Assembly: GCA_964609895.1 (NCBI GenBank)
Contig: CAZSTG010000002.1
Span: 3,362 to 67,361, forward strand
From: an uncultured Gammaproteobacteria bacterium
GTDB lineage: Bacteria; Patescibacteriota; Microgenomatia; UBA10105; UBA927
Direction: 5' to 3'
Length of the DNA stretch: 64,000 bases
The notes below the pieces were generated by a model. The model was given only the letters and a program-made list of their open reading frames with translations. It was not told the DNA's origin and ran no database searches. Numbering within the stretch: the stretch's first letter is position 1; every line of letters begins with the position of its first letter. Of this stretch, positions 29,502 to 40,321 are shown one piece after another. A program made the translations under genes and the position numbers.

Positions 29502-29650
29502 ATACATCCTTTCCAAAAAAATATCCCTCAGGTGAGGGATAGAATAGCAGTGTTACTATACTGCCTGTATTCAATCCCTCGGTAGGAATTATGGACATTG
29601 CTGTCCGCCTACTGTCTCAAGGACAATGCTTATTTATACCATGGTGCGCC

Positions 29651-30499
29651 TTAAAGCGCAAGCTTGATGCCTGGTCCCATGGTCGTTGTGATCGTCACTT
29701 TGACGAGTTTGTTTTTGCCCATGGCACTCAGCACCGCCTGAATGTTTTCTGTCAGCTGCTTTTCTTCAAAGGACACTTTGCCGACTGCCATATGGACAAT
29801 CGGGTTGTCTGGTTCGCTTTTGTAGTTGACTTGTCCGTTGGATAATTCTTTCACCCGCTTGTCGATTTCTGTCGTTACTGTGCCGGTTTTCGGATTCGGC
29901 ATGAGGCCTTTTGGTCCCAAAACACGCGCAACTTTGGCAAGTTTCGGCATCATGGACGGGTGTGCAACCAATATATCAAAATTGATTTTTCCCGCCGTTA
30001 TTTCTTCTATGAGTTTGTCGTCTGCTACTGCCACACGTACCTGTTTCCCTGTTCCGTGCGGGAGCGTGACGCTGCCGCGGATGTCTTTTTTGTCTCCCAG
30101 TGTTAACGGGTTGATGTTGATGTGCAGTTCAACAGTGCCGTCAAATTTGGTGACGCTGGTTAACTTGACAAGCTTGAGTGCTTCCGGAAGAGAATAGGAC
30201 TTGTTTTTGTCGACAAGTTTTGCCGCTTCCTGATATTTTTTTCCGTGCTGTCTCGGTCCTGACACTTTCTTTTTTTTGTTTTCTTTTGCATTTTCGCCGT
30301 TTTCAACCTTGTCCATCAGTTCCCGCACTTCCGGTTTGAGCTCATCACCTTCGACGAGAACGGTGCGCTCGCCGCCTTTGAGGTTCACACCTTCGACTTT
30401 GGCTTTTTTGGCTTTTTTGCCTTCGCGCCTCGCGTCAGCTTTCCGTTTTTGTTCTTTTTCTGCCGCTTCATCACCAAGAATAACTTTTCGTACTTTTCC
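29651..30499 (-). CDS. rplA: 50S ribosomal protein L1 with ~80-aa Lys-rich N-terminal extension
   Basis: SVTKFDGTVELHININP...GPKGLMPNPKTGTVT is the L1 core. It is preceded by a KKAKKAK-rich extension. Confidence 0.9.
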   Translation of the reverse strand, partial: GKVRKVILGDEAAEKEQKRKADARREGKKAKKAKVEGVNLKGGERTVLVEGDELKPEVRELMDKVENGENAKENKKKKVSGPRQHGKKYQEAAKLVDKNKSYSLPEALKLVKLTSVTKFDGTVELHININPLTLGDKKDIRGSVTLPHGTGKQVRVAVADDKLIEEITAGKINFDILVAHPSMMPKLAKVARVLGPKGLMPNPKTGTVTTEIDKRVKELSNGQVNYKSEPDNPIVHMAVGKVSFEEKQLTENIQAVLSAMGKNKLVKVTITTTMGPGIKLAL

Positions 30500-30506
30500 C
30501 ATATGA

Positions 30507-30932
30507 TTACTCCGTTTTAATACCCATGCTTCGTGCAGTTCCTGCAACGACTTTCATGGCTGCTTGTACGTCTGTTGTGTTGAGATCCGGTAATTTGTCT
30601 TTGGCAATTTGTTCGACCTGTGCTTTGGTAAGTGTCGCAACGATTTCTCGTCCCGCTTTACCACCTGCTTTGTCAATGCCCAGTGTGCGTTTAATCATGG
30701 CCGCTACCGGTGGAAGCTTGGTGACAAACGTAAATGTGCGGTCTTCAAAGACGGTGATGACTGCAGGAATGATTTGTCCTTTGAGTTTGGCGGTTCGTTC
30801 GTTGTAGGCCTTCACGAATTCCATGATCGGAAGTCCGTGCTGACCAAGAGCAGGACCGACCGGCGGGGCTGCGTTTGCTTCGCCTGCTTTGAGATTCAGT
30901 TTAATAAGTGTTTTGACTTTTTTCGCTGCCAT
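30507..30932 (-). CDS. rplK: 50S ribosomal protein L11
   Basis: [34 protein letters not shown] is the invariant L11 N-domain. Confidence 0.95.
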
Positions 30933-31247
30933 ACCAAGTAGTGAAATTTCGACCATTGCCTTTTATGCGGTCAAAATCTCAACATCCTTTCGTTAATGAA
31001 TAATACTCTTCACCCCCAGATTTGTCTAGAATTCGGGCAATGCGGGAACGCATGTCGAAATTCTACTACCTGGTTGGGAAAACTTGGTTTCGAAGGGAAA
31101 TAGAAGAAATATCTATGTTCGGTTCGAAACGGTTTTCGTTTCTCCCTCCATACAAACGTACAGAAGTGAAGAAGAGTATAGCAAATGTGTGTGGGTTCGT
31201 AAAGGGGGAGGATGGGAATGGAAAAAGATGATTCTATTGCGCCGAAG

Positions 31248-31268
31248 TGATATAATTATAGGCTGTTA
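31248..31268 (+). promoter_or_regulatory. Extended -10 promoter module gTGaTATAATtataggctgtt (copy 1)
   Basis: A TGnTATAAT extended -10 sits roughly 130 bp upstream of CDS 31395. An identical 21-mer recurs at 32228. Confidence 0.5.
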
Positions 31269-31394
31269 TAAGAGGTTTGACTATTGGATACGTGAAAGGG
31301 AGGGAAATTGCACATTTCCAAGTGAATATACGTTCGAAGAAGCTTTGTTTCTACCGTCGGGTACCATTTCATATTCAAAAAAGAGAGGAATAGA

Positions 31395-32024
31395 ATGAGT
31401 GCAGCATGGGATATGACGAAAGAGATCGAGCGTAGTAGACAGTCGGTAACATTAAAACAAAGGCAATTGCTTTACAAAACGGAGCTAAAAAAGCTGTTCG
31501 AGGATCAAAGAAAAAAACTTATCCAATTTGATATTGATTTTCTTAATGCCAAAACGAAGAAATTGGATACAGGGCTTTCATCTATCAAGCAGCAGCTGGT
31601 AAAAGCAGGCTTTCAAGTGACGTTGACAGTTGAAATAAATCCATTATTGGCGAATATCGAAAAAATAGAACGGATAGAATATCCAGGTGAACCTGCAGAT
31701 TACGATGATGACCGTCATAAATGCTATATGTTTTATGAAGACCCGAGTAAGAAACGCTCCCGAGTTTTGAACTTAACAAGAAAATGGGTGTTGAATATCG
31801 TCAATGCTGCGGGGGATAGTAAATCAATTGCGATTTTTGCAATCATGGCTTTCTATCACGAAGAAGATTGCAAAGACCTGCAAGAGTCAGCTTACTATTC
31901 GGATCCAAAAGTATATATGAGTTTTCCCAGACGTATTGTATATACGACCGAGCGCGGAGGGAAATATTCGTTAACTACAGAGGATGTTGAAGTCATCAGA
32001 AGTGAGGTTGCGGAGTTTATTTAG
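31395..32024 (+). CDS. Hypothetical protein (island gene A)
   Basis: 209-aa ORF with an RBS-like gagaggaa upstream. No motif recognised. Confidence 0.5.
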   Translation: MSAAWDMTKEIERSRQSVTLKQRQLLYKTELKKLFEDQRKKLIQFDIDFLNAKTKKLDTGLSSIKQQLVKAGFQVTLTVEINPLLANIEKIERIEYPGEPADYDDDRHKCYMFYEDPSKKRSRVLNLTRKWVLNIVNAAGDSKSIAIFAIMAFYHEEDCKDLQESAYYSDPKVYMSFPRRIVYTTERGGKYSLTTEDVEVIRSEVAEFI

Positions 32025-32227
32025 CTGATTAGATCTTCGAACGCGAAGAGTGAATGAGAGAGAAAATCAGGCCGTTCATCCACAACGCGGATGGAATTCT
32101 CTTGTTTGTTTTCCCTCATTTATATCATGGGCTTGCTCACTGATTGCGTGTACCCACACGTATATGCAGCATATGCATAGATAACCAGTGAGTGTTTTTT
32201 TGGGAAAATAGGAGCATTTGATGCTCC

Positions 32228-32248
32228 GTGATATAATTATAGGCTGTT
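32228..32248 (+). promoter_or_regulatory. Extended -10 promoter module (copy 2)
   Basis: This 21-mer is identical to the one at 31248 and lies upstream of CDS 32415. Confidence 0.5.
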
Positions 32249-32414
32249 TTCGGAGATTAAGCCACGGGAAGAATTAGGGAGAGGAGTTGCACATTCACAT
32301 ACATGTTCGAAATGAAGGAAATACGTCAACCATATGTTGACATATATCACGTTCACTGTTTTTTGCCGGTCGATGGAACTATCGACTAACCTGTATCTTG
32401 CCAAAGGAGAAGAA

Positions 32415-33116
32415 ATGAACGCAAAAGGAAAGAGCGGTTGGAATCTTGGTACGGCAATTGCCGAAGTAACAACGGCAAAACATACTGTCGATACACGACG
32501 TCATGCGCTAGACGCTTGCGGCGAGTACGAACGACAGCTTGTTCAGGCAGCGTCTGTTGTCAATGGTGAAGGTCGACCCATTGCTGAAGCAGATATGAGT
32601 ATGCTCACCGGTTCGTTCATCCTTGAATGTACGAAAGCAATACAAGCATTCGTCCGAGAGATGCGCCGCAATGGGCTGCCTGCGTCTATGGAGTTTCAAC
32701 CGGTGCAAAGACGGGAAAATGAGGTAACAAATCAGCGTCGTGCGCGAAGCTTTGCGGGTGATCACCGTCCGCCGTATCTATTGGTGACATTTGCCAAGGA
32801 CAATCCGGTGCTTGAAGATACGCTTAGTTATTTTTTACTTACGCCATCCGTTGGGTGGTTGATCACTGTCCGTATCGGGGGTATGAGGAAAAAGTTTGCA
32901 TTGCATGCAACTGTTGGTTTTCCATACCCTGAATCATTTGCGGGTGACCTGAGTGCTCATATCCCTCAAGATGCAGACGAAAATAAGCGATATCAAGCAT
33001 TTCCACGCTCCATTGTGTTTTTCTTTGGGGATCCTTGGAATCAACAGTATACGGATTCCCTTGAGGGCATAGAGCCATGGCTACGACATTGGTTGAATGA
33101 AATAACACCGATATAA
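32415..33116 (+). CDS. Hypothetical protein (island gene B)
   Basis: ORF with a GGAGAAGAA RBS before MNAKGKSGW. No motif recognised. Confidence 0.5.
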   Translation: MNAKGKSGWNLGTAIAEVTTAKHTVDTRRHALDACGEYERQLVQAASVVNGEGRPIAEADMSMLTGSFILECTKAIQAFVREMRRNGLPASMEFQPVQRRENEVTNQRRARSFAGDHRPPYLLVTFAKDNPVLEDTLSYFLLTPSVGWLITVRIGGMRKKFALHATVGFPYPESFAGDLSAHIPQDADENKRYQAFPRSIVFFFGDPWNQQYTDSLEGIEPWLRHWLNEITPI

Positions 33117-33351
33117 GATTTTGAACATGAATAAACGGAAAGAAATTCCTTATAAGGAATGCATAATACTTGCATTGTTGGTGTTCCTTTGCGAATTTTT
33201 TCTTTTCGTCAATTTTTGACCCCCGCCAAGGTATTGGTACTTTTTGGTGGGGGTTTTGTTTTGGAAAAAATAGGGAAAAGAGAAAAATTTCTGTCGGTTT
33301 TAGCACAAAGGGTTCAACCGACAGACGGTAATGGTAAAAACGTAGAATTCG

Positions 33352-33885
33352 CTATCCACCGATTTCATTGAGTAATCCAATGCATGCGGTGAATAACCGG
33401 TCTTTTGATGCGTGCGCAGGTGTCTGTCTCATGATGTTTGCCAGTGTTTCCGATGCAAGTTCAATTTCCGACAGCGGGCGGGTGACTGTGGAATGCATCA
33501 AAAACAACCGGAGTTGTATAAGCCGTTCTTCGAGCGGAATGGTGTCAGTTGTGACAAACTTCGGAAGGGTTTGTTCCAGAATGAAACAGACTGCGTTGGT
33601 ATAGCGTATTTTATCGCTTCGTTGTATGGTAAAACCCGGTAATTGATGCAGCAATCGGTTTCTTGGGTCGCTTGTGTTTTTTTCGTCAAGGTGCTTGGCT
33701 GATGGTGACAACAGAATCGTATCGATCGCAAAAACCGCGCCTTGCATGGGTAAGAGTTTTGCGCAGACGATAAGCTCCCGTGTGAGTTTTTGGTCAAGCT
33801 CCCTTTCTTTATGTGTGACTTCGTAATGCACACATGAGAGTAACTCGTACAACTGATTAAGTGACAGTATCATGAATTCCTCCAT
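33352..33885 (-). CDS. Hypothetical protein (island gene C)
   Basis: 177-aa ORF only. Confidence 0.45.
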   Translation of the reverse strand: MEEFMILSLNQLYELLSCVHYEVTHKERELDQKLTRELIVCAKLLPMQGAVFAIDTILLSPSAKHLDEKNTSDPRNRLLHQLPGFTIQRSDKIRYTNAVCFILEQTLPKFVTTDTIPLEERLIQLRLFLMHSTVTRPLSEIELASETLANIMRQTPAHASKDRLFTACIGLLNEIGG

Positions 33886-34118
33886 ATATTTTGATTAAGA
33901 ATGATCTGACGGGCAGATAATGCAAATAGGTGTGCGTTGACAATACTTGCACATAACTGCCTGCCAGATGCCCTTGGAGGATTGAATATCTACGTTTTGT
34001 TAAAGAGCGCATCTATCACCCTAAATATGACAATCGGCAAGCAAAATATGCCGTCAGGGTGCGATGATACCTGTATTATAGTGCTGCGTAGAAGAAAGTC
34101 AAAAATAGCCTATAATAC

Positions 34119-34147
34119 TTGACAAATCAGGATAAATGGCCTATAAT
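34119..34147 (+). promoter_or_regulatory. Perfect sigma70-type promoter TTGACA-17 nt-TATAAT
   Basis: ttgaca(34119-34124), a 17-nt spacer, then tataat(34142-34147). Confidence 0.6.
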
Positions 34148-34186
34148 ATGCTTCTTAGTGTTTTGCCTGCCGGTGAGATATGAAAA

Positions 34187-34209
34187 GCGCCGTCAGCGGC
34201 GCTTTTTTT
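34187..34209 (+). terminator. Rho-independent terminator GCGCCG-tca-GCGGCGC + T7, ~35-50 nt downstream of the consensus promoter
   Basis: A GC-rich hairpin is followed by TTTTTTT. Confidence 0.6.
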
Positions 34210-34387
34210 GTGCCTCAGGCATGGCTGAAACATATCTAGCGAAGCTAGATGCTCTTTACCAACCAGGTGAGAAGTATATTTTTGGTTTTAGGCAACATAC
34301 CGGCATGGGAATGATGTCTGTCGTTCTTGTACTGGTATGTTGTTTCAAAAAACTAAAAAAATAATTCATGAATTGGAGAAGAAAAAA

Positions 34388-34588
34388 ATGTTAAAAGGAT
34401 GTGTTGTCATCGTTGTTCTGCTTGTGATTCTTGCGATCATCAGTTGTTGTTGTGTCTTGCCAGTAGCGTTTGCATTGGGATGTGATCCAGATTTACCGGG
34501 ATCTACTGACAAGAACTGTTCTGTTGAGGGGGGATTTACTGGAATGTTTCGATTTGGAATCAATTCGATTTCTAGCGCAAATCCGTAG
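34388..34588 (+). CDS. Small hydrophobic Cys-rich membrane peptide (hypothetical)
   Basis: The ggagaag RBS precedes MLKGCVVIVVLLVILAIISCCCVLPVAFALGC. Confidence 0.35.
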   Translation: MLKGCVVIVVLLVILAIISCCCVLPVAFALGCDPDLPGSTDKNCSVEGGFTGMFRFGINSISSANP

Positions 34589-34615
34589 ACAGCCCTCCCC
34601 AGCTGTTTTTTTAAA

Positions 34616-34650
34616 AAAGAGTCTGCCGATTGCTGACAGACTCTTTTGAT
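34616..34650. terminator. Bidirectional terminator (agagtctgccgattgctgacagactct with flanking T/A runs) serving nusG on minus strand
   Basis: A 10-bp stem has T-runs on both strands. Confidence 0.6.
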
Positions 34651-34760
34651 CTTTTATTGGATCACATTTTTTAGTATTTTCTGTTTCTCTTTTCACCTGG
34701 TTGTCTTTTTTCCACTACAACCACTTCCGTAATTTTTCCAGAAAAAATCCTGATTGAAGT

Positions 34761-35510
34761 TTACAGTTTTGCAACCTGCAAGAAATCGAGTTCCACCGGT
34801 GTTTCCCGTCCGAAGATGGAAACAAGGACTTTAACTTTACCTTTTTCTTCATCCAGTGAATCGACCGTTCCCAAAAAGTCCGAGAACGGGCCGTCGGTAA
34901 TCTTGACCGCTTCACCGACGGAGAAGCTTGTTTTGTATTTCGGAGCTTCCAATGCCATAAATTTCATGATTGCCGCGACTTCGGGTGCACTGATGGGGGT
35001 CGGTTTGTCTCCTGTTCCCACGAACGCAGTCACTCCCTGAGTGGTTCTGACCGCGAGCCACGAGATGTCGTCTAAGATCATGCGAACCAAAATATACCCC
35101 GGAAAAATCTTTTCCTTTTGTTCTTCTTTTTTGCCGTGTTTAACCGTAACGATATTCCGTGTCGGCACGATGATGTCAAAAATCTGATCCTTGAGTTTCA
35201 TCGTATCAATGCGTTGTTTCAATGTTGTTGCGACCTTGTTTTCATGTCCTGAATAGGTATGGACGACATACCATTTTGCATTTTCCGGTACATCGGTTCG
35301 GAGTACGACCTGCGGTTCTTCTTTGGTGATATCAAGTTTTTTTGTGGCTGCTTTTTTGGAGTCAACAACGGGTTTTGCCTCTTCTTTTTTCTCTTCTACC
35401 ATAGGGGTGGCTTCCATAACTGGGGCTTCTGTAACAGGTGTTTCTTCCACAGGAGTATTTTCATTTGTCATTGGCAATTTATCATTTAGCATTGCGTTTG
35501 TGTCATCCAT
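34761..35510 (-). CDS. nusG: Transcription antitermination factor NusG with ~70-aa acidic/Pro-rich N-terminal extension
   Basis: WYVVHTYSGHENKV is the NGN domain. The C-terminal KOW domain reads FSVGEAVKITDGPFSDFLGTV. Confidence 0.9.
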   Translation of the reverse strand: MDDTNAMLNDKLPMTNENTPVEETPVTEAPVMEATPMVEEKKEEAKPVVDSKKAATKKLDITKEEPQVVLRTDVPENAKWYVVHTYSGHENKVATTLKQRIDTMKLKDQIFDIIVPTRNIVTVKHGKKEEQKEKIFPGYILVRMILDDISWLAVRTTQGVTAFVGTGDKPTPISAPEVAAIMKFMALEAPKYKTSFSVGEAVKITDGPFSDFLGTVDSLDEEKGKVKVLVSIFGRETPVELDFLQVAKL

Positions 35511-35512
35511 AA

Positions 35513-35722
35513 TTATCTCCTAAAAATAAGAGCGGTTATACGTAAAAATGTGCTGTCTAAGATACCGATGAACACTCCGACAATGACGGATATCACAATG
35601 ACAACCACAGTCAGTTTCAGTGTTTCGGCTCTTGTCGGCCACGTTACCTTTTTAAGTTCTGCCATCACTTCACGAACAAATTGTCTTGGTGACGGTAGTT
35701 TGGAAACTGCAGGATTTTCCAT
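35513..35722 (-). CDS. secE: Preprotein translocase subunit SecE
   Basis: FVREVMAELKKVTWPTRAETLKLTVVVIVISVIVGVFIG is the typical SecE single-TM pattern. The gene lies directly upstream of nusG. Confidence 0.85.
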   Translation of the reverse strand: MENPAVSKLPSPRQFVREVMAELKKVTWPTRAETLKLTVVVIVISVIVGVFIGILDSTFLRITALIFRR

Positions 35723-35823: not shown

Positions 35824-37542
35824 TCAGTCAAAAGGACTGCCATTCGGATCTTTTGCCTTACAGTCGTCGACAAATAACTGTGATGTGCGGCCGACAGGGG
35901 AACAGCCTGATGCGGACACGTTGCCGCGGGCGACAACTTCCTGATACGTTCCCCTGATGTTGCTTGGAAAGCATCGGTTGTCGTTTTTTCCCTGATCAAG
36001 TGCGAATGTTGTACACCCCACTCCTCCCGCTGCGTATGAGCATAACAGATCATAGGTAGAATTACGTACGGGATAATGATAGATGCACAGCAGTTGTTCA
36101 CATACAGTACTGTTTCTTCCGACACCAACTCCTTTTTCAACGTCGAATGTACATCCCATCGGCTGCGCGCCGATCGCTCCCGCCGCAGTTTCTTCTATCC
36201 AAAGCGCAACAAGATAGGATGGATTCCATCCCATTTTCACGGCCCATTCCTCAATGGTTTTGTAATAGGCAAGGACATTTTCTTTCGCCTGTTGTTCTTC
36301 AGGTCGTCCTTTAATCCATTGAGCGGCAAAATCAGCAACCGCTTCCACGTTTTGAATGGTGCAGCTAGTAGTATGCATCGGGATACTGAATCCCAGAACA
36401 CTGTCATTGGAAGATCCGAATCCGCTATATTTGGATGGGTCGAGTGTTACACCTTCAAATGTTGCGTCGCACGATTGTGATTCAGGTGTCGCGGTCGGGA
36501 CGTCCTGTTTGCATTTGTCGGATAATCCGTATTTGTCTCTGAGAGCCTTGGGAAGGATTGCACATTTCATGTAATTGGTGGCATCTTCCACTGCCTTGGT
36601 GCCCAGTGTGTGTGTTTTAATGGTCTGATTATTGCTGAATGCATTGTCTTGTTCACCGCTGGTTTCGTCTCCTGTGATGGTATGTGAGATATGCGCATAT
36701 GTTTCCACGACGCCGCCTGCTTCCTTTACCCGTTTCTGTTCCTCTTCGTTTTTGAGATACGACAGATCACCACCCGCTGCGCAGCCGGTAATCAGACAGT
36801 CCATGCTTTCCGCATAGGGAGTAAGCTGTCTGGATGCAAGTGTTGCCTTGACAACACCTCCGGTTCCGAAAATGCTTTTGAACAACTCAAGCAGTCCGCC
36901 GGTGTTAAAAAATCCTCCCGTTGTTTTGACTGTTTTTGTCTCCTGTGTGTCACCTGTATCCGTTTCATCGCAGAGCGGTGCACGCGCAAGCTCCAGAGGT
37001 TCACGATCTGTGTTGTAATTGTAGTCTCCGTCTACCGGCGAAATGGAATATCTGCTGGTAATTGCAGCGGCAAAGCGCGATGCCTGATCAAGTGTGGAGA
37101 GTTCCGGAATGATTTCTGTTGTATATGCTTGTTTGCTTTCCTGTTCGACAATACGGTTGTTTTCGTTTGTTTTACAATAGCGGGCGCGCCCCGAAATATA
37201 CAGGTTTTTTTCCTGATCAATTGTTTTTTCTTTGATGACATAAGGGGTGAGAAACCGTACGCCGCTCGCAAAAAAATTGGCAATGGTTTCCAGTTTTGGC
37301 ACATTGAAATCCGCGCCCGTCGTCAGATTGACGTCTTTGATGGTTATGGTTACGGAAGGTGCTGTCCCGCCGATGGAAAACGGCACGGAGTTATCAAGCA
37401 GTTCATTGAGCGCTCCTCCTGTTTCGATCTGCCGGACTGCAGGGGAGGTAGGGATCGGGGTTGTTGTTTGTGCGCACGCCTGCTGTTCAGGTATAACGCT
37501 CAGAAAAAAAAGGACAGCGACGGCACAAAAAAACCGTTTCAT
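35824..37542 (-). CDS. Large secreted Cys-rich hypothetical protein
   Basis: Start chosen at MKRFFCAVAVLFFLSVIPEQQACA (signal peptide). Upstream in-frame residues overlap galU on the other strand. More than 20 Cys residues are present. Confidence 0.6.
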   Translation of the reverse strand: MKRFFCAVAVLFFLSVIPEQQACAQTTTPIPTSPAVRQIETGGALNELLDNSVPFSIGGTAPSVTITIKDVNLTTGADFNVPKLETIANFFASGVRFLTPYVIKEKTIDQEKNLYISGRARYCKTNENNRIVEQESKQAYTTEIIPELSTLDQASRFAAAITSRYSISPVDGDYNYNTDREPLELARAPLCDETDTGDTQETKTVKTTGGFFNTGGLLELFKSIFGTGGVVKATLASRQLTPYAESMDCLITGCAAGGDLSYLKNEEEQKRVKEAGGVVETYAHISHTITGDETSGEQDNAFSNNQTIKTHTLGTKAVEDATNYMKCAILPKALRDKYGLSDKCKQDVPTATPESQSCDATFEGVTLDPSKYSGFGSSNDSVLGFSIPMHTTSCTIQNVEAVADFAAQWIKGRPEEQQAKENVLAYYKTIEEWAVKMGWNPSYLVALWIEETAAGAIGAQPMGCTFDVEKGVGVGRNSTVCEQLLCIYHYPVRNSTYDLLCSYAAGGVGCTTFALDQGKNDNRCFPSNIRGTYQEVVARGNVSASGCSPVGRTSQLFVDDCKAKDPNGSPFD

Positions 37543-37635
37543 AAATCTTGGTTTATCATAACAAATTGACATTCTGTTTGCACGACGGATACAATTGAGG
37601 AACGATTGAAATATCTGCAAGGAGGAGGGCAGTGT

Positions 37636-38514
37636 ATGGAACCACGAAAACCGATTCGAAAAGCAATTATTCCCGCAGCCGGATTCGGCACGAGGTTTTT
37701 GCCGCAGACCAAAGCCATGCCGAAGGAAATGCTGCCGATTGTCGATAAACCGGTGATTCAATATGTTGTCGAGGAACTGGTGGAGTCCGGTATTACGGAA
37801 ATTATCATTGTCACGGGGTGGCACAAACGCGCAATCGAAGATCATTTTGATTATCCCAATGAGCTGATCCAGACGCTCAAAGATCAGGGAAAAGAGCAAA
37901 TGATTGAGGCGGTTAAACGGCCGGCGGAACTTGCCAACTTTGTGTATATCCGGCAAAAAGGGCCGTATGGTAACGGAACGCCGGTACTTTGTGCAAAAGA
38001 CGTCATCGGCGATGAGCCGTTTGTCGTGATTTGGGGAGATGAGTTTATTTACAGCCGTCCCGCGCGTGCAAAGCAGTGTCTGGACGTGTTCGCAAAATAC
38101 GGTGACCCCGTCATTTCCGCAATTCGTGTGCCGAAAGAAGATGTTTCCAGATACGGTATCGTGGAAACGGTGGATGTTGAAAAAAACGTCGGACAGATCA
38201 AACGGTTGATTGAAAAACCATCCATTGCAGAAGCACCGTCCAATTTAGCGGCGCACGGGTGTTATGTGTTGACCCCTGATATTTTTCCGATTCTTGAACA
38301 TGTCAAGCCGGGGAAAAGCGGAGAGATTTGGCTGACTGACGCGATACGGGAACTGATGAAGACGCGGCCTGTATATGCCTGCGAAGTGCAGAATGCGAAA
38401 TATTATGACACGGGAAATAAACTGGAATATCTGAAAACCGTTGTGGAATTCGCGCTCAGTCATAAGGATTTGAACGGAGATTTCCGTGATTATCTGAAGT
38501 CATTGAAATTATAA
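37636..38514 (+). CDS. galU: UTP--glucose-1-phosphate uridylyltransferase
   Basis: KAIIPAAGFGTRFLPQTKAMPKEMLPIVDKPVIQYVVEE is the GalU N-terminal signature. Confidence 0.9.
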   Translation: MEPRKPIRKAIIPAAGFGTRFLPQTKAMPKEMLPIVDKPVIQYVVEELVESGITEIIIVTGWHKRAIEDHFDYPNELIQTLKDQGKEQMIEAVKRPAELANFVYIRQKGPYGNGTPVLCAKDVIGDEPFVVIWGDEFIYSRPARAKQCLDVFAKYGDPVISAIRVPKEDVSRYGIVETVDVEKNVGQIKRLIEKPSIAEAPSNLAAHGCYVLTPDIFPILEHVKPGKSGEIWLTDAIRELMKTRPVYACEVQNAKYYDTGNKLEYLKTVVEFALSHKDLNGDFRDYLKSLKL

Positions 38515-38519
38515 CCGAC

Positions 38520-39050
38520 ATGAAACGATCCATTGCCAAACTGAAAGGGCTCGGCTATATCATCTGGCACGCCAGACACATGCTCTATCATCTGCTTATC
38601 GGCCTTGTGTGGGCATGGTTTTTGCGCGAAATGTGGGATGTATTCAGTTGGAAAATTGTTTTACTTTCCGTGTTCGGGTCATTTTTTCCTGACAGCGAAC
38701 ATCTGGTGTATTTTCTTATTTCAGGAAAGAAAGATGAATATTCCAAACAGGTGAAGGCGTTTTTCAAGGCCAGAGAATGGCGGGTATTGACGTCATTTAT
38801 AGAAACAGGGCATAAATACAACACGAACCTTTCCTATCATAATGTGTATTTTGTGGTATTCCTGATGATTCTCACGATTATCTGTTTCTTGATAGACTGG
38901 GAAGCATGGATGGCGGTTTTAGGCGCAATGGTGTTGCATTACCTTTTTGACATTGCGGATGATTATCATACGCTTGGATATTTGAATGACAATTGGAAAC
39001 GATGGGGAAGTAAGAACAAGAAACCTACAGCTTCACGTACACAAAAATAA
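38520..39050 (+). CDS. Hypothetical polytopic membrane protein
   Basis: ORF with about 4 hydrophobic helices. Confidence 0.45.
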   Translation: MKRSIAKLKGLGYIIWHARHMLYHLLIGLVWAWFLREMWDVFSWKIVLLSVFGSFFPDSEHLVYFLISGKKDEYSKQVKAFFKAREWRVLTSFIETGHKYNTNLSYHNVYFVVFLMILTIICFLIDWEAWMAVLGAMVLHYLFDIADDYHTLGYLNDNWKRWGSKNKKPTASRTQK

Positions 39051-39516
39051 GCGTGCATATAATGGCACTTTCGATACGCATCACCGGATGAGTGATATAG
39101 GTTTTGATAAATACTTTTTTGTCTTCAAGATGCATATCTTTGACGGAATGCAGGATGTTAAAAAACCTTGTGCTGAACGGATAGAGCCATCTGATGCCAC
39201 TTCTCATATCAATGGTATCGAAAAGAAAATGACTGATCACACCGACAGTGAGTATATGTATATATGGAAGAATAGCTGGATAGAACGCTGCAATGAAGTA
39301 TGAAGCTCCGATGATACAGAACCAGAAGAGCGGTGTGTGCAGGAGACTTTCCCTGTGATTTTTGGACATGGGGATATATAACACATCAAAATCCGGCAGG
39401 TTTGCCGCAATCACGCCGATGGGATAGATCATAGGAGATGCTAGGGGAATCATCCCTGTATCAACGGATATTTTTGCAAGAACAATACCAAATAACGTGT
39501 GTGTAAGTGTTGTCAT
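39025..39516 (-). CDS. Membrane-bound metal-dependent hydrolase-like protein (YdjM/DUF457-like)
   Basis: MTTLTHTLFGIVLAKI...PDFDVLYIPMS fits a His/Asp-rich small inner-membrane hydrolase pattern. Confidence 0.5.
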   Translation of the reverse strand: MTTLTHTLFGIVLAKISVDTGMIPLASPMIYPIGVIAANLPDFDVLYIPMSKNHRESLLHTPLFWFCIIGASYFIAAFYPAILPYIHILTVGVISHFLFDTIDMRSGIRWLYPFSTRFFNILHSVKDMHLEDKKVFIKTYITHPVMRIESAIICTLIFVYVKL

Positions 39517-39587
39517 AATAAAATAAAATAGTGTTATCGGATAATAATTATACTCGGGAAAAACCCACCTCTTTCTTCATCGCGCGT

Positions 39588-40184
39588 TTATTTATTGGGA
39601 GTAAAGGTGGACACAAGTGTGTCAAAAATCTGTATACTTTCCGGCGTTGCCTTGTTTTTTCCGGAATCATAAATTAGCAGATAGTTTGTGTTGTCGACAA
39701 GGATCGGGCCGATATGGATGACAGTGCCCGTATTGGAATACCCTTTGACTCTAGTGGTACGCTGTCCTGCTACCGTTACCTGTTTGACCACATCTCTTGT
39801 TGTGATGAATTTTATATTCGGATCAGTGTTTTTGGGGTAGGAAACAACGAACATGGAATATCCTGCATCGGGCGGAGTCCATGTGTCCAAGAGAACCTGC
39901 GGTTTTATTTCATTGCTTTTGGTTTGTAATTCCGTCGGATATTTTGCGGCATAGCTCACTCCCGCGAATCCTTTCCACGCCGTTGTATCCAGATTCCCTT
40001 GGTCGGGCGAGGTATCTGCCTGTGCTCCGCCACGCATCTGGGATGCGGTATTTTTTTGTTTCTGTGCAGCATACAGCCAGAAACTGAGTGCAAGAGACAG
40101 GAATACTGCAATAACAATAATAGCGGTGGTTTTTTTTGAGGTACTGCCCGATGTATGTTTCGGGTCGACTGCATTGTCTTCCAT
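39588..40184 (-). CDS. Hypothetical membrane-anchored secreted protein
   Basis: An N-terminal TM (AIIVIAVFLSLALSFWLYAA) is followed by a soluble domain. Confidence 0.45.
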   Translation of the reverse strand: MEDNAVDPKHTSGSTSKKTTAIIVIAVFLSLALSFWLYAAQKQKNTASQMRGGAQADTSPDQGNLDTTAWKGFAGVSYAAKYPTELQTKSNEIKPQVLLDTWTPPDAGYSMFVVSYPKNTDPNIKFITTRDVVKQVTVAGQRTTRVKGYSNTGTVIHIGPILVDNTNYLLIYDSGKNKATPESIQIFDTLVSTFTPNK

Positions 40185-40226
40185 ATATCAATAACTATAC
40201 TCATTCTTCCGTATTGTGTCTAGTCT

Positions 40227-40297
40227 GCAGGGGCGTCAGGATTCGAACCTGAAAGAGCGGTTTTGGAGACCGCCATGATACCGTTTCATCACGCCCC
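40227..40297 (-). tRNA. tRNA-Trp (anticodon CCA)
   Basis: The reverse complement folds with acceptor AGGGGCG/CGCCCCT, anticodon stem GCGGT/ACCGC, loop CTCCAAA and T-loop TTCGAAT. Confidence 0.7.
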
Positions 40298-40321
40298 TAA
40301 CGGATTTCATTATATCAGGAA

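Follow-up and report, generated by a model that had tools for sequence, protein, structure and literature searches.

The nusG–rplK junction of Candidatus Gottesmanbacteria holds lineage-specific genes and a predicted structured leader RNA

In a 64,000-nt stretch of DNA from an uncultured bacterium (contig CAZSTG010000002.1; the window, whose coordinates are used for all positions below), 3.8 kb of undescribed genes separate nusG from rplK, the gene for ribosomal protein L11. Rather than a mobile or defence island, this is probably a vertically inherited, fast-evolving and genus-specific module of uncharacterised genes. Its genes are transcribed independently of the ribosomal operon and are the most unusual part of the locus. 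A first-pass annotation had described the interval as three hypothetical coding sequences, a small Cys-rich membrane peptide and a short transcript from a consensus promoter, none with a recognisable motif, and had read it as a rare insertion of the kind that carries defence or host-interaction cargo. The layout was confirmed by the Pfam matches of the flanking genes and by the open reading frame (ORF) coordinates: the three coding sequences (209, 233 and 177 aa) and a hydrophobic, Cys-rich ORF lie where they had been placed, between secE-nusG and rplK-rplA-rplJ-rplL, all on the minus strand. The island proteins gave no match with a meaningful E-value in Pfam, NCBIfam, PADLOC or PHROGs. The first-pass interpretation was partly right: the genes are undescribed, but the reading as a rare insertion with defence cargo was not supported.

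The principal features of the island are the following:

31395-32024, plus strand: ORF1, family A, subfamily A1, 209 aa; matches ORF2 by BLASTP (E 7e-4)
32415-33116, plus strand: ORF2, family A, subfamily A2, 233 aa, cytoplasmic; homologues and an AlphaFold (AF2) model
33352-33885, minus strand: ORF3, family B, soluble, 173-177 aa, found in this clade only; 45% identical to L007 12483-13010
34119-34147, plus strand: predicted promoter of the RNA leader, TTGACA-17-TATAAT, 12/12 consensus; the block CCTATAATACTTGACAAA is invariant in five lineages
34153-34390, plus strand: structured RNA leader, ~235 nt, ending at the Shine-Dalgarno (SD) sequence and AUG; RNAalifold, covariation and covariance model R1
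34388-34588, plus strand: small exported ORF, 66 aa (83 aa from the ATG at 34337), lipoprotein-like; IISC, lipobox-like, after the hydrophobic region, read by eye

Inheritance of the nusG–rplK junction

Searching one-genome-per-species GTDB contigs with the NusG protein as query gave 80 loci; related loci in the comparison set carry L-numbers (L003, L007 and so on). The best were metagenome-assembled genomes of Candidatus Gottesmanbacteria/Microgenomates at 84-87% identity, and the window genome is a member of Candidatus Gottesmanbacteria (Microgenomates, candidate phyla radiation (CPR)). The exact sequence of ORF1 was also present on two Logan contigs, with the same gene order as in the window.

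In the 70 Microgenomates loci with both genes, we measured the gap that separates the nusG end from the rplK start. The gap was at least 400 bp in 47/70 and at least 1 kb in 36/70. Just three Gottesmanbacteria loci had tight gaps (71-156 bp), and most held 1-5.3 kb. The statement that insertions at this junction are rare is therefore inapplicable to this lineage: the junction is not tight in this class and stands open across the Gottesmanbacteria, where it contains lineage-specific, vertically inherited genes. Across Microgenomates the cargo includes a secreted protein with immunoglobulin-like domains (16 loci), an MFS transporter (8 loci) and a TAT-signal protein, and more rarely an IS200-like Y1 transposase (2 loci, L020 and L030) or a PaaX/Cas2-like protein (2 loci, L023 and L043). 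This cargo is heterogeneous yet clade-specific, and it tracks the phylogeny.

Family A, the family of ORF1 and ORF2, was found between rplK and nusG in every relative with enough sequence context (L003/L007, L088, L089, L090, L092/L093 and L109), where it is transcribed divergently from rplK. Hidden Markov models (HMMs) of family A and of family D, the exported protein of the sister lineages, matched none of the other Microgenomates loci, and the loci that carry the module formed one clade in a neighbour-joining tree of NusG, sister to L008-L011. The GC content of the island is 0.419 vs 0.442 for the window, and GC at third codon positions falls within the spread of the neighbouring genes; the composition is native. 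There are no flanking direct repeats and no tRNA at the island (the nearest is 5.5 kb away), and family scans of the island ORFs found no integrase or transposase. What would mark a mobile genomic island or a prophage remnant (integrase, repeats, tRNA, deviant composition) was thus not found, and the distribution is monophyletic. Relatives carry these genes in the same position, the composition is native and mobility genes are absent, all of which contradicts a rare or recent insertion.

Nor did we find support for defence or host-interaction cargo. ORF1, ORF2, ORF3, the small ORF and the relatives' families C and D had no match in PADLOC-DB 2.0 at E<=0.1, PHROGs gave no match of note for the island proteins, and a single-protein scan of viral contigs turned up no relative.

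The ratio of nonsynonymous to synonymous substitution rates (dN/dS) was 0.18-0.37 for family A and 0.24 for family D, compared with 0.06-0.11 for nusG and 0.01-0.03 for rplK. ORF1, ORF2 and ORF3 are real genes, since their homologues are under purifying selection (dN/dS 0.18-0.37) and the AlphaFold model of family A is confident. The first-pass annotation had held that its reading would fail if relatives carried the same genes at the same place with housekeeping-like conservation. The genes are indeed there, at the same place; their conservation is not of the housekeeping kind, because the island proteins change at several times the rate of nusG and rplK.

The leader RNA and the small exported protein

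The interval from ORF3 or family A to the small-protein gene aligns block-wise in five lineages, and conservation starts straight after the invariant promoter (CCTATAATACTTGACAAA...CCTATAAT). RNAalifold gave a consensus of -56.5 kcal/mol with 62 pairs for six sequences. In this fold a P1 stem, GUGUUUUGCCUG/CAGGCUGAAACAU, encloses P1a, a GC hairpin in which the U-run is paired to an A-rich 5′ strand. P2 is a hairpin of fully variable sequence. It is accompanied by a single-stranded, invariant core, UUUA(A/C)CAACCAGGU (also written UUUA(A/C)CAACCAGGUAGA), and by P3, a long hairpin with conserved internal GUGUGAAUGA...UUCGUUCUCAUUCAG. P1a corresponds to the consensus-promoter mini-transcript of the first-pass annotation. 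The perfect promoter was confirmed, with a GC hairpin and a U-run behind it, and what had been taken for a short transcript forms the 5′ part of a more extensive structured leader.

In the six-sequence alignment 95.6% of cells were paired, vs 42-52% when the partners were slid, and 14/62 pairs showed changes on both sides, compared with 0-3 in the slid controls. P3 covaried at 14/20 pairs across 10 sequences. A helix that would sequester the SD sequence, CUCCUUUU/AAAAGGAG, was predicted in 5/6 close sequences, again with compensatory changes (columns 140-151 with 240-251). Two marks of a structured cis-regulatory leader are present, namely compensatory changes and a constant position in the 5′ untranslated region (UTR) before one class of gene.

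Covariance model R1 recovered its six training loci and their duplicates, as well as independent copies at L030 (60.9 bits), L026 (24.7 bits) and L023 (21.3 bits). The 16-nt core, allowing <=2 mismatches, occurred 12 times in 1.5 Mb of Microgenomates loci, L021 included; three pairs of hits are duplicate contigs, which leaves about nine distinct lineages. All 12/12 copies are antisense to nusG. Nine of the 12 lie inside the measured nusG-rplK gap, and the other three (L003, L092 and L100) are on contigs with nusG and without rplK. The leader copies of the distant Gottesmanbacteria L021, L023, L026 and L030 are diverged and occupy the same junction in the same orientation. The unit of RNA and small exported protein is therefore older and more widespread than families A-C, and it is the most conserved non-ribosomal feature of the junction. 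Rfam 15 gave no family match to the leader even at E<=10; the best overlapping matches were eukaryotic microRNA models at 19-21 bits, against gathering thresholds of 65-85, with E 1.5-2.2. Viral contigs scanned with the 16-nt core yielded 21 matches, which we attribute to chance; 0 were confirmed by the covariance model. A motif common to the rplK leader and the RNA core, CAACCAGGT (inverted repeat I8), was likewise judged a chance likeness, because the rplK copy abuts the ATG in relatives and the window version was made by a 137-bp insertion (see below).

In all ten lineages the RNA is followed, 110-160 nt further on, by a small ORF that has a signal peptide, a lipobox or a membrane anchor; these downstream ORFs range from 66 to 151 aa. 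A lipobox has the form [LVI][ASTVI][GAS]C and follows a hydrophobic region. Read by eye, such a motif is IISC in the window, LTAC in L021 and in L023, LSAC in L026 and ISAC in L030; by the same reading these proteins have the positive N-terminus, hydrophobic region and lipobox Cys of lipoproteins. The window ORF contains 6 Cys and reaches its hydropathy maximum, 3.5, at residue 6. In alignment A8 it takes the position of the membrane-anchored family D (139-151 aa), which is found in the sister lineages of the window and has a hydrophobic anchor without a clear lipobox, a WPGP motif and two conserved Cys. Its match to the family D HMM is weak (1e-8) and partly circular, the model having been built from A8, which includes the small ORF.

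Two of the distant loci showed irregularities. In L026 (9700-9770) the lipoprotein ORF after the RNA seems split by a one-base frameshift, with an Arg/Lys-rich N-terminus in one frame and the hydrophobic region and lipobox in the next, which may reflect an assembly error or a real frameshift. The junction of L030 (10593-12863) holds the RNA and a lipoprotein ORF, which the gene of the IS200-like Y1 transposase overlaps; also present is an ORF of 329 aa whose sequence, on inspection by eye, resembles that of a sigma-70 family protein.

Families A, B and C and the signals around them

A profile of ORF1, ORF2 and two homologues, run against 1.84 billion cluster representatives, retrieved 8 proteins only, which divide into subfamilies A1 and A2. 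The two occur in tandem, as in the window, in L087 and L093; A2 stands alone in L007, L088 and L089, and A1 alone in L100/L109. ORF1 is 50% identical to its L087 homologue (dN/dS 0.18). ORF2 (dN/dS 0.26) has a 71%-identical homologue on L003/L007, there too between nusG and rplK and next to a 45%-identical homologue of ORF3. From these comparisons ORF1 and ORF2 are identified as old paralogues. A recent tandem duplication was ruled out, because A1 and A2 each have homologues elsewhere and lineages keep A1, A2 or both.

Hydropathy plots of family A lack a hydrophobic segment, as expected of soluble proteins. AF2 with a 10-sequence alignment produced a model with a pLDDT (predicted local distance difference test) of 86.3 and a predicted template modelling score (pTM) of 0.79, which we used instead of a run with 4 sequences (pLDDT 55.6). 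The model has two long N-terminal helices (11-49 and 58-85, a helical hairpin), an antiparallel beta-sheet domain and a C-terminal helix. Counting E<=0.001 or a template modelling score (TM)>=0.5 as a match, Foldseek found none in the PDB (best E 0.1, TM<0.25) or in BFVD. Family A also had no match in Pfam, NCBIfam, PADLOC, PHROGs or PDB sequences. The structure prediction proposed in the first-pass annotation thus returned a confident model without a counterpart, and family A is a tiny new family with no fold match in the libraries searched. Its invariant columns are L64, W148, R198 and V201. Since these residues include no conserved catalytic-type set, family A is probably a non-enzymatic binding or structural protein.

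Families B and C are soluble and clade-restricted, and phmmer detected no relation among A, B and C. ORF3 (family B) has a weak homologue in L092-L094; an indexed search of 5.8 billion proteins found no homologue, and ORF3 had no family matches. L007 and L092 have family C; the window lacks it, and ORF3 is the only representative of B and C there.

The flanking genes and predicted signals are, from nusG towards rplK:

35513-35722, minus strand: secE (Pfam SecE, E 3e-20)
34761-35510, minus strand: nusG (Pfam NusG, E 1e-27, and KOW)
34615-34647, no strand assigned: terminator-like hairpin, bidirectional, separating the small ORF from nusG and flanked by an A-run and a U-run; the fold of 34589-34665 has -24.3 kcal/mol, z -5.8
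34075-34102, minus strand: divergent ORF3 promoter, TTGACT-16-TATAAT, 11/12
33296-33325, minus strand: ORF3 terminator-like hairpin (CUGUCGGUU...AACCGACAG and a U-rich tail), z -2.9
33218-33255, plus strand: ORF2 terminator-like hairpin (GACCCCCGCCAAGG...), then UUUUGUUUU; z -3.9, inside a block 79.6% conserved with L007
32229-32414, plus strand: A2 extended -10 promoter (TGaTATAAT, 32229-32237) and conserved leader
31248-31394, plus strand: A1 extended -10 promoter (31248-31256) and conserved leader
31175-31203, minus strand: rplK's own promoter, TTTACG-17-TATACT with TG, kept in relatives
30934-31073, no strand assigned: ~137-bp insertion with ~20-bp terminal inverted repeats, in the window only
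30507-30932, minus strand: rplK (L11; Pfam L11 N- and C-terminal domains; 97% identical to L007)
29509-29639, upstream of rplJ: L10 leader (RF00557, Rfam)

Several non-coding blocks appear to be under constraint, because they are 75-80% identical to L007 at a synonymous divergence (dS) between the genomes of 0.55-1.24; one of them is the region 33914-34268, which is 75% identical. The promoter and ~80-nt leader of family A are better conserved across lineages than the proteins they precede, and a 17-mer in the A1 leader, TATAATTATAGGCTGTT, is identical to one upstream of ORF2. A consensus secondary structure of the family A leader was not supported (-4.6 and -1.1 kcal/mol). Leader peptides, sought in this leader by reading the sequences by eye, were rejected, as start codon and frame are not conserved. 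A metagenome scan with the 18-mer TTAGTGTTTTGCCTGCCG gave 15 loci, 3 of them true (L098, L100 and L109) and the rest chance.

The ~180-nt 5′ UTR of ORF3 (33914-34068, minus strand) is 75% identical to L007 and can be aligned to L092. In both of these its homologue precedes the family C gene and not family B; the leader therefore stayed with the promoter when the window lineage lost the operon's first gene.

TTCGAA is depleted in the window (18 sites vs ~29 expected), and 5/18 sites crowd into 1.2 kb (31089-32311). The rplK leader contains two of these, the A1 and A2 leaders one each, and the fifth follows closely on the ORF1 stop; several are kept in relatives. The cluster may be a shared operator or a protein-binding motif linking the expression of rplK and family A.

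The ~137-bp insertion separates the conserved rplK leader from the start codon of rplK, which it immediately precedes. It is missing in five relatives (AACCA-TATGGCAGC) and is present as a single copy in the window (inverted repeat I1). Its predicted fold, a long hairpin (-49.5 kcal/mol, z -3.7), would occlude the start region, and the insertion looks like a miniature inverted-repeat transposable element.

Some further peculiarities were noted in the flanking genes. NusG has a low-complexity N-terminal extension of ~75 aa, with the Pfam NGN domain beginning at residue 79 (34761-35510), and L1 (rplA, 29651-30503), of ~284 aa, has a Lys-rich N-terminal extension. The adjacency of tRNA-Trp and secE, usual elsewhere, is likewise broken, tRNA-Trp (40227-40298) lying 4.5 kb from secE. 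The interval (35824-40298) holds, among others, an NTP-transferase, a YdjM-like gene and a 572-aa protein that has no Pfam match and is kept in this place throughout Gottesmanbacteria; the gene order of the interval is the same in L088-L090.

A model for the module, alternatives and known systems

We consider it most likely that the leader controls a small surface protein after transcription initiation, and that families A and B are non-enzymatic cytoplasmic proteins; this working model is drawn from sequence comparison. In the genus-level clade to which the window belongs, the module consists of separate transcription units, most of them with a recognisable promoter and a terminator-like hairpin. 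Family A, cytoplasmic and in one or two copies, is expressed divergently from rplK, from an extended -10 promoter and behind a leader more conserved than the proteins themselves. Families B and C are optional soluble proteins, of which the window keeps only ORF3. From its perfect sigma-70 consensus promoter the ~235-nt leader runs into the gene of the small exported protein, 66 aa in the window and family D in its sisters, and would control that gene after transcription has started. The early GC hairpin and U-run could end transcription to give a ~55-nt product. On read-through, the upstream CUCC(U)n could pair with the AAAGGAG Shine-Dalgarno sequence around P3, and translation would then need a trigger, which might be a ligand, a protein or temperature. 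For the exported proteins we infer a role in the envelope or at the surface.

A more far-reaching proposal, which we put forward tentatively, is that the RNA may represent a new class of ligand- or protein-responsive riboregulator, an ancestral resident of the junction that gates fast-diverging surface lipoproteins of episymbiotic bacteria with reduced genomes, and that family A may be a new fold co-opted beside it.

We also considered whether the junction could be a hotspot for conflict systems, in which variable accessory cargo, here families A, B and C with the exported protein, would serve anti-phage defence or host interaction. The cargo does differ between Gottesmanbacteria clades, some gaps contain the Y1 transposase (L020, L030) or the PaaX/Cas2-like protein (L023, L043), and the island proteins are ORFans that evolve several times faster than their neighbours, one of them exported. 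Against this, the cargo follows the NusG phylogeny and is not shuffled, its composition is native, and dN/dS is well under 1. The island proteins show no nuclease, ATPase, NTPase or other enzymatic motif, the invariants of family A being W, R, L and V, and they have neither PADLOC matches (E<=0.1), PHROGs matches of note nor relatives on viral contigs. We regard such a system as unlikely.

Two other explanations concern the RNA. It might be a free-standing non-coding RNA gene, either a ~55-80-nt P1/P1a product or the whole 235 nt, with the small ORF merely downstream. The perfect promoter, the GC hairpin and U7 tail ~55 nt after the start, and the much better conservation of the RNA than of the downstream proteins, which are unrelated between distant lineages, would fit this explanation. 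In ten lineages, however, the RNA runs to the SD/AUG of an exported-protein gene on the same strand and at a similar distance. By prediction the U-run belongs to an extended helix in which it pairs with the A-rich 5′ strand and which shows a single compensatory change, A-U to U-A. P3 and the anti-SD tract, downstream of the putative terminator, are conserved as well. We therefore doubt that the RNA is free-standing. Alternatively, the RNA and the small hydrophobic ORF could form a cassette like those of type I toxin-antitoxin systems, in which the structured 5′ UTR would keep the mRNA of a membrane peptide from being translated until it is processed. A strong consensus promoter, a long structured leader with predicted SD sequestration and a window ORF of only 66 aa with an N-terminal transmembrane segment would be in keeping with such a cassette. 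A toxin of <~60 aa with an antisense RNA was not found, the ORFs having 66-151 aa and no antisense promoter, element or small RNA being identified; reverse-strand matches of the covariance model are mirrored hairpins. Moreover, the unit is single-copy and fixed at one locus, and in nine other lineages the proteins have 84-151 aa, carry a signal peptide or lipobox and contain a conserved extracytoplasmic domain (family D), unlike pore-forming toxins of 20-60 aa. This explanation is the least credible of those considered, and we think it very improbable.

Several points weigh against the reading we prefer, a vertically inherited module whose leader controls an exported protein. A conflict system, whether for defence or for host interaction, would also be expected to evolve fast and to include an exported protein. 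The NusG tree was built by simple neighbour joining from ~178 residues. Promoters, terminators and the RNA 5′ end are predictions, and the RNA structure comes from 6 close and 4 distant sequences, its pairs counted on the alignment that yielded the structure. A second prediction pairs 5′ CCUU with AAGG at the SD, so that the SD has two alternative partners. Finally, the RNA-leader unit may be decaying in the window genome, because the anti-SD tract CUCC is missing from the window copy, its leader has diverged most and the ORF behind it is truncated.

Bacteria of the CPR (Patescibacteria) have small genomes in which roughly every second gene lacks a known function. To our knowledge very few regulatory RNAs have been described for CPR, and a literature search found nothing on the nusG–rplK junction in CPR or on RNA motifs of Gottesmanbacteria. 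The locus adds two novel items, a protein family without a fold match and a structured leader RNA absent from Rfam. It presents one of the most conserved bacterial junctions as a stable home for lineage-specific genes throughout a CPR class, and it cautions that an ORFan-filled gap between core genes need not be a defence island. The narrow taxonomic range of the RNA and its missing functional handle limit the wider impact.

The window shares gene order and strand with the canonical secE-nusG/rplKAJL-rpoBC arrangement of the E. coli type. As there, a promoter and leader of its own precede rplK downstream of nusG, and an L10 leader precedes rplJ. The spacer between nusG and rplK is roughly 0.1-0.2 kb in the E. 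coli type and 3.8 kb in the window, where, unlike in the E. coli type, it holds four additional transcription units, of which three run antisense to the ribosomal genes, and where nusG ends at its own bidirectional terminator, a predicted hairpin. With defence islands and integration hotspots between core genes the window has in common a variable, mostly uncharacterised cargo bracketed by two housekeeping genes. Unlike theirs, this cargo is inherited with the clade, is native in composition, and comes without an integrase, tRNA, flanking repeat or PADLOC/PHROGs match.

The leader resembles orphan riboswitch candidates and other structured 5′ leaders of the Rfam kind in its multi-helix 5′ UTR, its covariation, its invariant single-stranded nucleotides, its fixed position before one functional class of gene, and its predicted expression platform (terminator-like hairpin, SD sequestration). 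It differs in having been found only in Gottesmanbacteria and only at one junction, in having no Rfam 15 match, and in preceding genes for small lipoproteins or exported proteins of unrelated sequence that give no hint of a ligand. With the type I toxin-antitoxin mRNAs hok/sok and aapA/isoA it shares a small membrane-targeted ORF behind a long, folded, SD-occluding leader; unlike them, it mostly precedes 84-151-aa proteins with lipoboxes or an extracytoplasmic domain, and it is single-copy and syntenic, with no antisense RNA seen.

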